Shown here one piece after another: positions 2,748 through 22,785 of a DNA stretch of 64,000 nt (position 1 is the first letter of the stretch; each line of letters begins with the position of its first letter). The notes under the pieces were generated by a model. It searched no databases. It was not told the origin of the DNA and was given only the letters and a program-made list of their open reading frames with translations. This stretch comes from Dictyostelium discoideum (Eukaryota): positions 7,616,001 through 7,680,000 of the forward strand of contig CM000151.3 of NCBI GenBank assembly GCA_000004695.1. Direction: 5' to 3'. A program made the translations under genes and the position numbers.

Positions 2748-4976
2748 TTATAACCAATTTAAATCAAATTTATAATCATTATGATTTAATAATTCTTTTA
2801 ATAAATGATCAGATAATGTTTTATCATTTTTAATATTATTATTTAATAAATTTAAATGATGACCATTATAATAATATTTAATGATATGAATTTTTTGATC
2901 TTTAATTGCTTTTGTAATTGCAGATTTTGTAATTTTAAATTGAATTGGATGATAATAATGACAAAGTAAAAGGTCACACAATTTAATATCACCAACAATG
3001 AAAGCACTAAGAAACAAATTATCATCGGAATCCAAGTATTCAGCTTCTCCAGTTAATTTTTCTTTTTCTCTTTTTTTATCCAATTCTATTTTAAAATCAT
3101 CATAAATTGATTTTAAAAGTGATTGAGTTTCAGGTTGAATTAGAATTGCTCTACATTGTTTTTCTTTTTGGAAAGAAGTTTCAAAGTTAATATCATCGGC
3201 ATCCATATCATCATCAACATTTGATGCACCATAAGTATCTCTTTGAATTCTAAGTAATTTGATTAAAGCATCCTTACGAGTTTCAATATTCATAAATTTT
3301 TCATAATGATTTGAATTCTTTCTCTTTGATAAGAAATCGATTAAAACACTGAGGAATGCAATTGGAAAAGTTGTATCATTGAAAACATTTAAGTCATACT
3401 TGAATTTATTTGGGTATCTAACTTTATCAAAGTGATTGTTTAATATGAAGACAGCCTCTTGATAAAAACTATAATGAGTATCCAAAGCAAAACGTGGGAA
3501 TGAAAAGAATTGAATATCAAAATTTGCTAAAAGAAATGTTGAAATATCAAATCTGCTCCAATGTAATGATTTTGAGAATAAAGTATCTTCAAATTGAATG
3601 ACATGAAAATTATATTCTAAAAACTTTTGAATAAGTTCTAAATCTGTAATGACCATGAATATTAAATCCAATACCTTTTCAGAGTAATCAAATGAATTTA
3701 TGATTGTTAATGGTTTGAATATACAATGGTCATATTGTATTGTATTTCTTTCACAAAATGGTAGGTATGGTTTTGGAAATTCTCTACCACCACTAAATAA
3801 TTGACTTGTTGGTAATATCGTTGTCATTGGTGAATTATAGGAATACTCTTGAATTGGGAATGGATCATTTGATTTCAATACATAATCCTCAGATGTTGTA
3901 TCCTTTAAATGAGATTGAATTATATCTAAATGTTTAAAGAAAAGATCCACTCTTCTAATATCTAAACAAAATGATAAATCTGCATTCTTTGAAAGTTGAT
4001 AAAAATTATGAACTATATTCTCCTTGAAACAAATATCATTTGATAATTGATCGAAAAGATTTTGAAGAATTTCATCAAATGATGCTGCTGTTGATGATGC
4101 TCCTCCACTACTACTACTTTCGCCACCCAATACATAATCAAATGTAAACATTTCATACTTTAAATGATCTCTAATATCAAAACATCTTTCAGTGAAATAT
4201 TCTCTTGTACTATTATAACGAGAATCCATTGTTACATCAAAGAATGTTTCAATACCTGGTCTTGATAAAATGTACTTTATAAATTTGGCTGATCTAATCT
4301 TTAGATAATAGAAAGCATGAAACAATGAATGTTTGATTGGTATTGAATTTAAACAAAGGAATTGATGAGCCATCCTAACTTGTTCAATTGTTATATATTT
4401 TGTTTGAATTATCATTTCAAAGAAATAATTTAAAATTACTATACATGATTCTGGTAATGATTTTATAGTACCACTGCTACCACCACTACCACTACCACCT
4501 TCTTTCTGATGATCATTATTTACCGTACATCTCCATTTATTTACAATTGTTTTAAATATTGACATTACGAAATCAAATACCAATATTTCATCATGATTAT
4601 GATAAAGATTCAAAGAACTATTGAATAAATTTCTTTCAACTGATTGAATTCTTGTGAAATCTTGTTCTTCAAATTCTATTGCCTCTAAATTATTAATTAA
4701 AAATTCTACCATCTTTAAATTTAATGTAATGATTGAAGCTGTTAACCAACTATTTAGATAAAATTTAAGTGGATTTAAATTTACAACCAAAGTACTACTA
4801 ATTTCTCTTGGTAAATGTTCAATAACTTTTTTTAAAAATGCATGCATGCCATGCTGAATGAATTTGAAATTTGTTTTATTAAGATATTCAATTAAAGCAA
4901 CTATTTTCTTTTCAAAAACATCTGAATCAAATTGATCATCAACAATATTTTGATTGGGTTGTTTTTGTTGTTGTTT

Positions 4977-16372: not shown

Positions 16373-17095
<723 letters not shown>

Positions 17096-18313: not shown

Positions 18314-21093
18314 TTATTGTATGATAGTACTTTTAACTTCACTTTGATTTTCATTTTCATTTTGATTTTCTTTATTATCATTAAAAATTAATGGTTTTAT
18401 AGTTGAATCATTTGTAAAAGCAATTGAATAAACATCAGAATAATAATCTACCAAATAAATTTCAATACCTTCTTTAATGAAATCTGGAATTTCTTCCAAT
18501 TGTTTTTTATTCTCTTTTGGAATGATAATGGTTTTAATGGATTCCCTTTTAGCCAAAACTATTTTTTCAACAATACCAGATACACCAATGACCTTTCCAG
18601 TTAGACTAACTTCACCTACCATAGCAAGATCAGGTTTAACCAATTTACCAGTTGCCAATGATAATAATGATGAAACGATTGTAATACCAGCACTTGAGAT
18701 ATCTTTTTGAGTTGAACCATCTGGAGCATGAATATGAATTGAATTCTTGAGGAAATAATCATTTGAGGCATCCACTTTCAAAAGGAAATCCTTAACATAA
18801 CTATAGGATATATCAATGGATTCTCTCATTACCAAACCGAGTGAACCGGTTGTTGTTACGGTTGGACCATTGGTAAATCTATCCAAAGCGCTTTCAATAT
18901 GAATTAAACTACCACCTAAACCCATAACAATGCCTGGTTTTTGTTTTTGGAATAAACGACTTGATGGATATTTGATAGGACCCACATATTGTTCCAAATT
19001 GTCTGGTGTTATAATTACACTTTGTTCCATACCCATCGAGAGTTTATATGCCATCTTTCTGAATATTTTATCAATGAATTTCTTTAAATTTCTAACACCC
19101 GCCTCCCTACAATAGAGTTCGCAAAGCTTCTTAATTGCCTCTGGTGTGAATTGCAATTGCTCCTCGGAGATACCGGTTTCCTTACGTACCAATGGAAGGA
19201 GGTAACGTTTTGCAATCTCCATTTGTTCAGATTGAATATAGCCATTCAATGTCATAACTTCCATTCTATCCAATAGTGGAGCTGGTATTGAATCGGCATC
19301 ATTGGCAGTACAAATGAAAAGTACCCTTGAAAGATCATAAGGTACATCCAAATAGTAATCCACGAAATTCTTATTCTGTTGTGGGTCCAATACTTCCAAA
19401 AGTGCTGAATTTGGGTCACCTTGTGAAGAACGAGAGATCTTGTCAATCTCGTCGATTAGAATAACGGGATTTGAAGTTTTAACGGTTTTCAAAGCTTGAA
19501 TGATTTTACCTGGCATCGATGCTACATAAGTACGACGATGTCCTTTAATCTCTGAAACATCGGATAAACCACCCACTGAAATACGATGGAATTGACGACC
19601 CAATGCATTTGCTATCGATTTACCAACTGATGTCTTACCGGTACCCGGTGGTCCCACCAATAGAATCACTTTACCCCCAATGGAACCTCTCAATTTACCA
19701 ACTGCAATAAAAGTTTGAATCATTTCTTTAATATCTTTTAAACCATAATGATCTCTATCTAATATCTCTTTAACCTTTGAAATGTCGAAATTATCATTTG
19801 TGTATACATTCCATGGTAACAATGTCATCCAATCCAAATAATTTCTAGAGGTATTATATTCTGATGAATTTGATTCACAACTTGATAACTTATCCATCTC
19901 CTCTTTAAAAACTTGTAAGATTTGTTTATCCATTACGGCAATCTCTTTCCATCTACTATTAAATTTATTCTTTATTGTCTCTTTTTCATCCAAATCAATT
20001 CCCAACTCCTTTCTAATTAATTTCATTTGTTCGGTTAAAAAATATTTTTTTTGTTGTGCCATTGTTTTTTCTTCTAATTGTCTAACATATAAAAATAAAA
20101 AAAATAAAAATATTAATTTTTTGTTACTCTGCTTTTTTTTCAAAAATTAAAACATATTAATATTTACTTTTCAATTGAAAAATTGAAATCAAAAACTTCA
20201 CATTTTTTAACAAGCATTGATAAAACCATATTTAATTTCTCTTCTAAACTTTTACATTCTAATAGTTTTTGATATTCACTTGGTGAAGAGATACACAATG
20301 GACCAATTGAATTTAGTAAACTTGAATCATCCATTTTAAATATTGGTAACATACAAATTTGTTTTAAATGTTGAGCAAAACTGGAATCTTGATATCTATT
20401 GATAGCACTATAAATACATTTTACCAATTGAAGTCTTAATGCTCTAACGGTCAAAGAATCACCTAGTTCACTATATTCATGTGGTTCAATTGAAACTTTT
20501 AAATATTTACTTGTTGGTATTTGTGGTACAACTGGTGTAGTTATTGGTGTTATTGATGTTGATGGTGTTGTTGTTGTTGTTGTTGTTGAATCTGATGTAT
20601 CATTTTTTGATTCAGTAATTTCAACTAAATTTGAATTATTATTATCATGATCATTTGAAACACCAGTAATTTCAATTATTGGGCCACCACCTAATACGAA
20701 ATAACCTTGTGTTCGACAGACTGTTGCCAACATACCAACTTTATGAATTTTTGATAGATCAGGTGTGCCATGGGAAAAGGTTGTAAAATTTGATTTTGGT
20801 TTTGATGGTGGTTTAGATTTTGATGCCTCTTGCGATTTCAATTCCTCCATATGTACTTCCCTTTCAGCATCAGAAATTAAAAATAACCCGAAATGAGTTG
20901 GTGATCCCATCTCCCTATACTCTGCTTCTGATAATGTGAGTTGTACATATGATCCGTAAAATACTACATAATCAGTTATTGGTAGTGCTATAACCTGTTT
21001 GGGAATATATGACGCTAATGATGCTGGTGATGATGGTGATGGTAATGGTGGTGGTGGTGGTGGCAGTGGGGATGGTAGTGACGAAGCTGCACT
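18314..21093 (-). CDS. Lon protease (ATP-dependent protease La homologue): ...20168 spliced to 20081..18314; N-domain coding continues upstream to at least 21093
   Basis: AAA+ module ([58 protein letters not shown]...ILIDEIDK) and Lon proteolytic domain ([55 protein letters not shown]). The upstream ORF (20164..20910 and beyond) is the Lon N-domain ([28 protein letters not shown]..., [20 protein letters not shown]). An 86-bp intron, 20167..20082, has a GTAAAT donor in phase 2 and a TAG acceptor. The 5' end is unresolved (see findings). Confidence 0.85.
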
Positions 21094-21376
21094 CTACACT
21101 GCATTAACACCACCCCCCACTCTTGCTACTACTTCTACTTTTACTATTTAATTTTTCTTTTTTCTGTTTTTGAACTTTCTTTGAAACATTTTCTTCTTCA
21201 GTATCTATCCCTTTATCTGTAGCTCTACTTTTTAATAACTGATTTAAATTTTTTGTTTTTACTTTATATTTTTTATTTAATTGATTTCCTGTGGAAGTAT
21301 TATTGGTATATATTTTATTTAAAATTTTATTTGTATTTTTTTTTTTATTATTTATTTTATTTATTTTATCATTTCC

Positions 21377-21583
<207 letters not shown>

Positions 21584-22785
21584 GGTATTTGAAAAAGTCG
21601 AATATGATTTTAAAAATTCTTTTGGTTTATATATATAATTTACATAGGTTATTGTATTTGTTGTTGAAAAAGGGATTAAAGTGTTTGTTGGATTTTAACC
21701 AAGTAAATTTAACATTTTCCGTTTTTTTTTTTTTTTTTTTTTTTTTGGATTTGGTTTTTTTTATTTGGATTTGGTTTTTTTTTTTTTTTTTTTTTTTGAA
21801 AAGAAATTTAATTAAAAAAAAAAAAAAATTTTAATTTTAAATTAAATTTGAAGATGAAAATATAAGTTTATTTTATTTTTTTTTTATTTTTTTTTTTGTT
21901 TTCACATCAAAATTTTTTTTTTTTTTTTTTTTTTCTCATTAATCATTTTTTTTTATATTAAATATTATTTAAACTCTTAATTAAATTATTTTTTATTTTT
22001 ATATTTTTTATATTTCGAAATATAAATAAATATTTATTTATTTTTTCAAAAAAATTTTTAAATTTTTTCTTTTATTAATTTTTATTTGTATTTGGGAGTT
22101 TATTTCAATCAAAACTGAAGTTCGAGCGACCATTTTTTTATTTTTTTGAAAAAAAAAAAAAAATTAAAAAAAAATTAAAAATTTGACGAATTTTTTTTTT
22201 TTTTTTTAATTTTATTTTTTTTTTTTTTTTTATTTTTTTTCTTTTTTTTTTTTTTCAATTTTTTTTTCAATAAGTTGTATACATAAAGTATGTGTATTTT
22301 TTTTTTTTTTTGTGATACGCTATGAAAAGAGCGAGGGAGAGAGATTAGTGTATGTTATAGGATCACATGTCAAGCTATTGGTTATAGAAAAAGAAATTGA
22401 AAAATAATAATAAATAAATAAATAAAAAAACAATCAACATCTCATATAAAAAAAAAAGATAAATACCATCATAAATCCAAAAAAACAATTATCAACACAT
22501 CCTCAGCAATGAAAATAAAATAACTGGTTTTTTTTTTTTTTTTTTTTTAAAAATAAAAAAAAAGTCCATCATTTTATTTTATAAAACAAATCAATATTGA
22601 ACAAACATAATAAATGATTGCCACCACAACTTCACAATGAAATCAAAAAAAATTTTTATAAAAAAAAAAAAAATAAAAAAAATAAAATAAAACAAAATAA
22701 AAATAATAATAATAATAATAACACATTAATAATAACAATCAATAGCTTAAAACACATACAAAAATCTCTCACTCTCTTCGCTGGT

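Follow-up and report, generated by a model that had tools for sequence, protein, structure and literature searches.

The Lon protease gene considered here lies on the minus strand of Dictyostelium discoideum AX4 chromosome 2 (the strand to which all gene coordinates below refer), within the 64,000-nucleotide stretch of DNA that was analysed (the window). It raises a simple question: where does the protein start, when its conserved N-domain is encoded upstream of the first in-frame ATG? As the original prediction held, a TAG at 21096-21094 closes the Lon frame, which is open thereafter and has as its first ATG, GTG or TTG the ATG at 20910-20908. Comparison with the annotated D. discoideum Lon, which had been proposed as a check, shows that the 836-aa product from M20910 is exactly Q550C8/XP_642688.1 of AX4 (exact-sequence look-up), annotated as "Lon protease homolog, mitochondrial 2" with ATG 20910 as its start. 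A literature search on Q550C8, its accessions and Dictyostelium Lon protease or peptidase S16 found nothing on the gene.

As for the domains of the encoded protein, the AAA+ module, comprising Walker A, Walker B and the Lon lid, is recognised by PF00004 (3.2e-28) and PF22667 (7.5e-18), and the Lon_C Ser-Lys protease by PF05362 (5.6e-53), the latter with a variant active-site motif, KDISSAG, that is common to AX4 and its orthologues. An alignment with human LONP1 pairs the Ser of SSAG with that of PSAG and shows the EK lysine to be conserved. In AX4 both Walker motifs, the Ser-Lys region and the splice sites are intact. The N-terminal substrate-binding domain was also found, PF02190 (LON_substr_bdg) matching residues 35-296 of the translation from 21093 over profile positions 3-200 of 200, with a score that is borderline (29.0 bits against a cut-off of 28.7, E 1.2e-6). 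Since this match begins at I35 (20991), the N-domain starts 27 codons 5' of M62 (20910). The AlphaFold2 model (mean pLDDT 79, rising to 93 for residues 31-40) is in agreement, with a predicted strand at 33-39, a second at 49-51 and a helix at 56-61, all of which precede M62. While a phmmer search with the N-terminal 309 aa against the PDB matched no Lon, fold comparison succeeded, Foldseek aligning the predicted N-domain with the solved Lon N-domains 9jwa (E 4.5e-10), 3ljc and 7cr9 (both ~1e-9). Both Pfam and AlphaFold2 therefore place the beginning of the N-domain ahead of the first available ATG, as had been claimed.

The explanation came from related genomes. Our comparison set consisted of three collinear close relatives (loci L001, L002 and L005, at a dS of ~0.13), which share the gene order of the window over ~9.3 kb, together with D. 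purpureum (L004). The orthologous proteins are KAM9965891.1 (GCA_054859385.1), KAM9964400.1 (GCA_054859355.1), KAM9981900.1 (D. cf. discoideum, GCA_054859205.1) and D. purpureum DICPUDRAFT_154583. They are 1015-1066 aa long, with an intact presequence beginning MFKLL..., an extension and a linker, in contrast to the 836 aa annotated in AX4. In all four loci exon 1 is uninterrupted and starts with MFKLL..., and the relatives' lone intron sits at the same site as that of AX4 (Table 1). The ATG at 21713-21715 of AX4 is homologous to the starts of KAM9965891.1, KAM9964400.1, KAM9981900.1 and the D. purpureum protein (P0004). Overall, AX4 Lon is 94% identical to the orthologue P0001, and exon B differs from that of L001 and L002 by ~10 non-synonymous changes. 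The N-terminal part of AX4 Lon, taken by itself, is ~88% identical to P0001. Where AX4 departs from its orthologues is in the 5' part, which contains two nonsense codons, a frameshift and an (AAT)64 expansion. M20910 itself corresponds to an internal residue that is Met in L001, L002 and D. purpureum, and Leu in L005.

Table 1. Features of the AX4 Lon gene and its relic 5' end, in window coordinates
Feature	Position	Strand	Basis
Ancestral start codon (MLNLLG... in AX4, MFKLLG... in relatives)	21713..21715	-	DNA and protein alignments
Relic presequence, codons 2-44; changes include K3N, K11N and R12T	21584..21712	-	alignment
Lesion 1, nonsense TAA at codon 7 (TTA, Leu, in 3/3 relatives)	21695..21697	-	alignment
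(AAT)64 tract in the ancestral frame (polyAsn), AX4-specific expansion	21392..21583	-	alignment
Relic N-terminal extension in the ancestral frame (codons at 21106+3k), open, lacking ATG	21107..21391	-	alignments
Lesion 2, frameshift in a G6 run, net -5 nt, AGTGGGAGTGGTGGTGGTGTT to AGTGGGGGGTGGTGTT	21113..21118	-	base-level alignment
Lesion 3, nonsense TAG (GAG, Glu, in 3/3 relatives)	21094..21096	-	alignment
GC-rich, Pro/Ser-rich linker	20996..21093	-	homologous to relatives' translated linker SGSSSLPSPPPP...SLASHIPKQ
First predicted Lon N-domain elements (strand 1, strand 2, helix 1)	20911..20995	-	Pfam, AlphaFold2, Foldseek, dictyostelid conservation
Annotated start codon of Q550C8/XP_642688.1, an ancestral internal Met	20908..20910	-	exact-sequence look-up
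Rest of exon A (remainder of N-domain and long helix)	20168..20907	-	Pfam, AlphaFold2
Sole intron, 86 nt, GTAAAT...TTAG, AT-rich	20082..20167	-	site common to all relatives
Exon B (AAA+ module and Lon_C protease)	18314..20081	-	Pfam, human LONP1 alignment, motifs, dN/dS 0.07
Walker A, GPPGTGKT	19631-19654	-	motif coordinates
Walker B, ILIDEIDK	19439-19462	-	motif coordinates
Active-site motif KDISSAG	18686-18706	-	motif coordinates
Catalytic Lys region	18557-18577	-	motif coordinates
Stop codon TAA	18314-18316	-	end of exon B

The ancestor shared by D. discoideum, its close relatives and D. purpureum would have had an exon 1 that was one continuous coding sequence, leading from an MFKLL... start through a basic, acid-free presequence, a low-complexity extension and a Pro/Ser linker into the Lon N-domain. 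Read against the orthologues, positions 20911-21715 of AX4 are the decayed 5' part of this exon, that is, relic coding sequence, and represent neither an intron nor a concealed exon nor a site of recoding. The alignments show three derived AX4 lesions in it: the TAA at codon 7, a frameshift of net -5 nt, after which the old frame ends at a TAA at 21106-21104, and the TAG. Between the first and second of these the ancestral frame is open for 196 codons (21694 to 21107), and the relic extension is ~90% identical to residues ~60-160 of the relatives, which carry ~10 Asn/Asp codons at the position of the (AAT)64 tract. As an independent check of the lesions through Logan contigs, exact look-up of the ORFs overlapping them (248 aa, 50 aa on the plus strand, a 105-aa relic from the repeat edge and two of 32 aa) returned 0 records.

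Several peculiarities of the locus find their place in this history. The leader described as GC-rich does have a GC fraction of 0.52-0.60 at 21025-21124, against 0-0.25 further upstream (50-nt windows); judged from the alignments, this Pro/Ser leader, the AT-rich sequence and the (AAT)64 tract are all remnants of ancestral coding sequence. The AX4 linker is untranslated unless initiation is non-AUG. A further in-frame TAA noted upstream exists, at 21150-21148 instead of about 21141, as does the ATG of MFQRKFKNRKKKN, at 21189-21187 instead of about 21170. However, the suggestion that this ATG starts the presequence finds no support: it is out of the ancestral frame and reads ATG TTT TAA in two relatives.

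Could the frame be rescued by splicing? Enumerating GT..AG pairs gave nine frame-restoring options, the best being a 613-nt intron from GT 21699 to AG 21087 that is 85% A+T, would remove all three lesions and would yield MLNLL-A-SSLPSP.... However, the donors are all non-consensus (GTTAAA, GTTCAA, GTAGAG, GTGCAG, GTCACT), the short candidates are 44-65% A+T, unlike the real AT-rich GTAAAT...TTAG intron, and 0/4 related genomes have an intron here. A cryptic intron or upstream exon is thus very hard to credit. The doubt originally expressed about a conventional AT-rich intron at 21020-21130 was well placed, as the orthologues translate straight through the region, while the hidden upstream exon proposed alongside it finds no support in D. 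purpureum and the three close relatives, all of which encode the region as one exon. Programmed recoding, which would combine two stop readthroughs with a +1 frameshift at the G6 run, can be virtually dismissed: a +1 slip on GGG GGG would yield the required frame change, but three separate events would be needed, and at the three sites the relatives have Leu, Glu and an unshifted frame, with no conserved signal.

Errors in the AX4 reference, behind which the real gene would be intact, deserve scarcely more credence than a cryptic intron. The frameshift does fall in a G6 run within a GC-rich patch that lies beside a 192-nt simple repeat, all difficult templates. Nevertheless, the single sequence error put forward in the original prediction does not suffice, since each of the three lesions would have to be wrong and two of them are substitutions. 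Moreover, the first 44 codons carry nine AX4-specific substitutions, which are clearly real divergence, and should the codon-7 TAA be the one real lesion, 20910 would still be the next ATG in frame. The sequence adjoining the region is also identical in an independent assembly, AX4 and a Logan contig (L003) agreeing at 100% over 2348 nt, up to the end of the contig at 20587.

Selection along the AX4 branch bears on whether the gene survived these lesions. Because polarisation with D. purpureum left most sites undecided, changes were counted by parsimony on three nearly equidistant lineages, unrooted, and the branch counts are small. Over codons 1-44, the presumed presequence, where the relatives differ among themselves by only 1-2 nucleotides, the AX4 branch has accumulated 9 changes at the nucleotide level and 6 at the amino-acid level, where the other branches have 0-1 (binomial p ~0.001). 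Downstream, 15 synonymous and 4 non-synonymous changes map to the same branch in exon B (omega 0.07), and the rest of exon A has an omega of 0.32. All three lesions fall within the 20% of the coding sequence that lies 5' of M20910 (P = 0.008, or 0.04-0.05 if counted as two events), whereas the 2544 nt downstream have accumulated 0 lesions against 6.2 nonsense changes expected at the neutral rate (P = 0.002).

The main rival reading is a young unitary pseudogene, in which no part of the gene would still function in D. discoideum and the downstream ORF would owe its intact state solely to the short time elapsed. In its favour, AX4 carries two nonsense mutations and one frameshift relative to intact orthologues, all in the first 20% of the ancestral coding sequence, and has lost both start and presequence. 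The annotated start truncates the core of the N-domain, upstream ATGs are many, and the UniProt name "mitochondrial 2" implies a paralogue, "mitochondrial 1", that might cover the function. Outside codons 1-44, the upstream region has evolved no faster in AX4 than in the relatives, so the frameshift and the TAG may be recent. Against it, the gene as a whole is not evolving neutrally (omega ~1), as the values for exon B and the rest of exon A show: if the whole branch were neutral, ~56 non-synonymous changes would be expected in exon B where 4 are observed, and the downstream lesions expected are missing. In addition, divergence in the presequence (0.068 per site) is at least as high as the synonymous rate (0.042), so that its loss would be old relative to the branch. 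We therefore consider a dead gene unlikely.

The most likely reading, which we hold with reasonable confidence, is that AX4 makes a presequence-less, N-terminally clipped Lon from M20910, the gene having a decayed 5' end and being still under selection. The AX4 lineage would have acquired the three disabling changes, the in-frame (AAT)64 expansion and the substitutions that stripped the presequence of basic residues. Since no other Met separates residue 1 of the ancestral protein from M20910, the latter is the first usable AUG after the lesions, and translation would start there, where the gene is annotated. From the strong purifying selection on the AAA+/protease body we infer that the gene is still expressed, without its targeting sequence and without two strands and a helix of the N-domain; the start codon actually used is likewise inferred from sequence. 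This is the presequence-less product lacking the first strands that the original prediction listed among its options, and it fits the evidence best. Several considerations weigh against it. Besides the small branch counts and the unaccelerated upstream region outside codons 1-44, there are 11 upstream ATGs between 21715 and 20910, the one at 20948 opening a uORF that overlaps the annotated start, and these would depress translation if transcription from the old promoter is kept. A start at M20910 would also remove predicted core elements of the N-domain, which might then fail to fold.

This last difficulty would be avoided if the decayed gene used a near-cognate start between 21093 and 20991 (e.g., CTG 21066), keeping a complete N-domain. 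The frame is open from 21093, with CTG 21066, ATT 21006 and ATA 20991 in frame, and the 28 codons from strand 1 to helix 1 have only one AX4-specific replacement, V>A. However, the CTG is in a poor sequence context, and the conservation has low statistical power (2 changes in 96 nt, against ~4 expected if neutral), leaving such a start improbable.

No translated mitochondrial presequence was found in AX4: the TAA interrupts it at codon 7, and the changes in codons 1-44 remove three basic residues (K3, K11 and R12). Among the first 32 residues of the annotated product, 6 are acidic and 3 are basic. Having lost the ancestral targeting sequence, AX4 Lon is probably not imported by the ancestral route. 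A tentative extension, which we regard as possible but doubtful, is that a mitochondrial Lon paralogue turned into a non-imported protease through presequence loss, its AAA+/protease body being maintained by selection and translation starting at M20910, at a near-cognate codon or via a new 613-nt intron. If so, this would be natural re-targeting and remodelling of Lon within a very short distance, as relatives at a dS of ~0.13 keep the presequence. We also considered a peroxisomal Lon (LONP2). The PTS1 consensus is an SKL-like C-terminal tripeptide, and this identity was rejected because the protein has no PTS1-like C-terminus, ending in ...KSTIIQ in AX4 and ...STITQ in the relatives.

An important practical implication is that a decayed 5' end accounts for the unusual way in which this gene is annotated in a model organism's reference genome. 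The label "mitochondrial" of Q550C8 comes from homology alone, the AX4 sequence having no translatable presequence, and those studying LONM2 localisation or knock-outs in AX4, or using the gene comparatively, should be aware that the protein of close relatives is ~220 residues longer at its N-terminus. If the truncated protein is made, it would be a small natural experiment in the re-targeting of an AAA+ protease and in how much N-domain loss can be tolerated.

Compared with known systems, AX4 Lon has the same order of N-domain, AAA+ module and S16 protease as the mitochondrial LonA proteins human LONP1 and yeast Pim1, and human LONP1 matches it with an E of 2.7e-196 over residues 164-844. It differs from mitochondrial LonA in having no translatable presequence, in its motif (KDISSAG instead of KDGPSAG) and in that the annotated product would lack the predicted strand 1, strand 2 and helix 1 of the N-domain. 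For residues 33-307, fold comparison of the prediction with bacterial LonA N-domains (Escherichia coli 3LJC, Meiothermus 7CR9 and Thermus 7P6U) gave matches with E values of 1e-9 to 5e-10 and a TM score of at most 0.71 normalised to the target, although sequence identity is only 12-15% and AX4 has long low-complexity insertions (pLDDT <50 at residues 153-182). As for the process, partial decay of the 5' end of a gene followed by use of a downstream start is known to give rise to proteins that are N-terminally truncated or re-targeted, and also to pseudogenes. The 5' decay of AX4 Lon is an ordinary event of this kind and not new biology, mainly useful for annotation: on present sequence comparisons it resembles known cases in that the lesions are confined to the 5' end, the first downstream in-frame AUG is the annotated start and constraint is retained elsewhere.

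On the minus strand, splicing of 21093-20168 to 20081-18314, with removal of an 86-nt intron (GTAAAT...TTAG), yields a complete LonA protein, which matches human LONP1 with an E-value of 2.7e-196 and contains AAA (3.2e-28), Lon_lid (7.5e-18) and Lon_C (5.6e-53) domains. Each of the three domains tested (N-domain, AAA+ and S16) places it in the LonA family. Its 836-aa product starting at M20910 is exactly Q550C8/XP_642688.1/EAL68840.1, recorded as "Lon protease homolog, mitochondrial 2" on chromosome 2 of D. discoideum AX4. A product starting at this Met, the fourth option in the original prediction, is thus the annotated gene model. In AX4, the name "mitochondrial" could be justified only by a translatable presequence, and none was found; the AX4 Lon also lacks a PTS1-like C-terminus (...TIIQ). 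Beside the gene lies an ORF of 240 aa (16373-17095, minus strand), in which an unbroken run of ~48 Gln is followed by Asn/Lys/Tyr-rich low-complexity sequence.

The Lon frame is open from 21093, where a TAG closes it upstream, and it contains no ATG, GTG or TTG before the ATG at 20910. The Pfam LON_substr_bdg profile (29.0 bits, cut-off 28.7) aligns its position 3 to frame residue 35, at position 20991. An AlphaFold2 model made from 23 aligned Lon sequences (mean pLDDT 79) matches solved Lon N-domains with an E of about 1e-9, and places two strands (33-39 and 49-51) and a helix (56-61) upstream of M62, which corresponds to position 20910. Frame scan, profile, model and fold match together uphold the claim that the N-domain begins before the first in-frame ATG. 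The predicted upstream in-frame TAA and the ATG of MFQRKF... are also present, with their coordinates corrected to 21150-21148 and 21189-21187 (minus strand), respectively. G+C reaches 52-60% in the 100 nt around 21025-21124 and is 0-25% elsewhere in the region. The doubt that a conventional intron lies at 21020-21130 was well placed, since that reading failed its tests; a recoding reading of the same segment also failed.

Three longer proteins from newer assemblies share the 90%-identity clusters of the AX4 Lon: KAM9965891.1 (1059 aa) and KAM9964400.1 (1066 aa), both labelled D. discoideum, and KAM9981900.1 (1048 aa), from D. cf. discoideum. Two of the three loci, when compared with the window, are collinear over ~9.3 kb with 82-90% DNA identity. 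All three loci (L001, L002 and L005), like that of D. purpureum, read through exon 1 as one unbroken ORF that opens with MFKLL... and extends to the only intron, at the same site as in AX4. AX4 has instead, upstream of the TAG, a second frame of 196 open codons (21694-21107) with no ATG, which is preceded by ATG 21715 ... TAA 21697 and is the homologue of the relatives' N-terminal extension. The GC-rich Pro/Ser "leader" has a coding-like composition because it is homologous to the relatives' translated linker. Roughly equal distances (dS 0.12-0.14) separate AX4, the L001/L002 pair and L005 from one another. The assemblies GCA_054859355.1 and GCA_054859385.1 (L001, L002) and GCA_054859205.1 (L005) were deposited as D. 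discoideum/D. cf. discoideum, and blastn differences, intergenic DNA included, amount to 10-18% both between AX4 and these assemblies and between L005 and the L001/L002 pair. Such divergence at the locus is far above within-species expectation. The active-site motif at 18686-18706 (minus strand) is KDISSAG in AX4, the three relatives and D. purpureum, whereas the canonical KDGPSAG is found in human LONP1 and in three further Lons from dictyostelids (P0005, P0007, P0008).

Base-level alignment with the relatives identified three derived disabling changes in AX4, listed below with an AX4-specific repeat. Downstream of the frameshift, the old frame stops at TAA 21106-21104. At the site of the repeat, the three relatives' assemblies have about 10 Asn/Asp codons. 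L005 has an independent in-frame 15-nt deletion (RSGSR-----GVNAV) in the Gly/Ser-coding G-rich patch aligned to 21107-21125, and this patch, which holds the AX4 frameshift, appears prone to indels. The proposed presequence start MFQRKFKNRKKKN proved to be an accident, because ATG 21189 is out of frame relative to the ancestral reading and the matching ATG in L001 and L002 reads ATG TTT TAA.

Features of the decayed 5' end in AX4
Feature	Position	Strand	Basis
TTA>TAA, codon 7	21697-21695	minus	base-level alignment
Perfect (AAT)64 tract, ancestral frame (polyAsn)	21583-21392	minus	AX4-specific
Frameshift AGTGGGAGTGGTGGTGGTGTT > AGTGGGGGGTGGTGTT, net loss of 5 nt in G-run	21118-21113	minus	base-level alignment
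GAG>TAG	21096-21094	minus	base-level alignment

Errors in the reference could mask an intact ancestral ORF, but this would be restored only if all three lesions were artefacts, and an independent Logan contig is 100% identical to the reference across the adjoining 2348 nt, next to the lesions. Moreover, the first 44 codons carry nine nucleotide and six amino-acid changes on the AX4 terminal branch (F2L, K3N, L7stop, K11N, R12T and S41F), with none on the L001/L002 stem and one, synonymous, on the L005 tip, an AX4 excess with a binomial p of about 0.001. The presequence-like N-terminus (5 K/R, 0 D/E in 32 residues) is thereby down to two basic residues. These changes are genuine divergence, not base-calling noise, and a sequencing error that created the stops, as originally suggested, is very unlikely. 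Since presequence divergence in AX4 (0.068 per site) is at or above the neutral rate, the loss is not very recent. Among the three related lineages, the same codons (positions 3001-3132 of their loci) show 1-2 differences in 132 nt, against a dS of about 0.13 elsewhere, which suggests constraint on synonymous sites as well at their 5' end.

While disabling lesions are present, as in a pseudogene, neutral evolution along the gene is not observed. On the AX4 branch, exon B has 15 synonymous and 4 non-synonymous changes (omega 0.07; 0.04 on the sister stem), and the part of exon A that follows M20910, which evolves fast in all lineages, has 8 and 9 (omega 0.32). With neutrality set by the AX4-branch synonymous rate (0.042), the 2544 nt downstream of M20910 have 36 substitutions where about 106 are expected, and no nonsense mutation against 6.2 expected (P = 0.002). 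None of the three lesions lies outside the first 20% of the CDS, upstream of M20910 (P = 0.008; with the frameshift and TAG, 19 nt apart, taken as one event, 0.04-0.05). Splice sites, Walker motifs and catalytic region are intact. Together with the age of the presequence loss, this evidence, in which counts are small, makes a product on which selection still acts more probable than a dead gene. Pairwise dN/dS among AX4 and the three relatives is 0.4-1.2 in the faster N-domain part (20168-20910 and homologues), where the L005 tip has 22 non-synonymous versus 2 synonymous changes, and 0.05-0.09 in the AAA+/protease part.

Where might translation of such a product start? After residue 1, the next Met of the ancestral protein is the one at 20910, which became the next in-frame AUG once codon 7 was a stop. 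This Met is an ordinary, replaceable internal residue, because L005 has Leu (RELGSPTH) at the codon aligned with 20908-20910. Eleven ATGs lie upstream, between 21715 and 20910, the uORF from ATG 20948 overlaps the annotated start, and the M20910 product would be missing the first two strands and the first helix of the modeled N-domain, all of which argues against efficient use of AUG 20910. Near-cognate initiation at in-frame CTG 21066, ATT 21006 or ATA 20991 could provide a full N-domain. A cryptic intron could also be involved: a candidate 613-nt excision, GT(21699)...AG(21087), would clear every one of the three lesions, but it would depend on a non-consensus donor, GTTAAA, and none of the relatives has an intron at this place.

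The anomaly is thus real and is explained by decay, specific to this lineage, of the 5' fifth of a Lon paralogue, after which the annotated start is the first surviving in-frame AUG, within the N-domain. The finding is of use for annotation and raises the testable possibility of a re-targeted, N-terminally clipped Lon in D. discoideum; 5' decay of a gene is itself a known kind of event.
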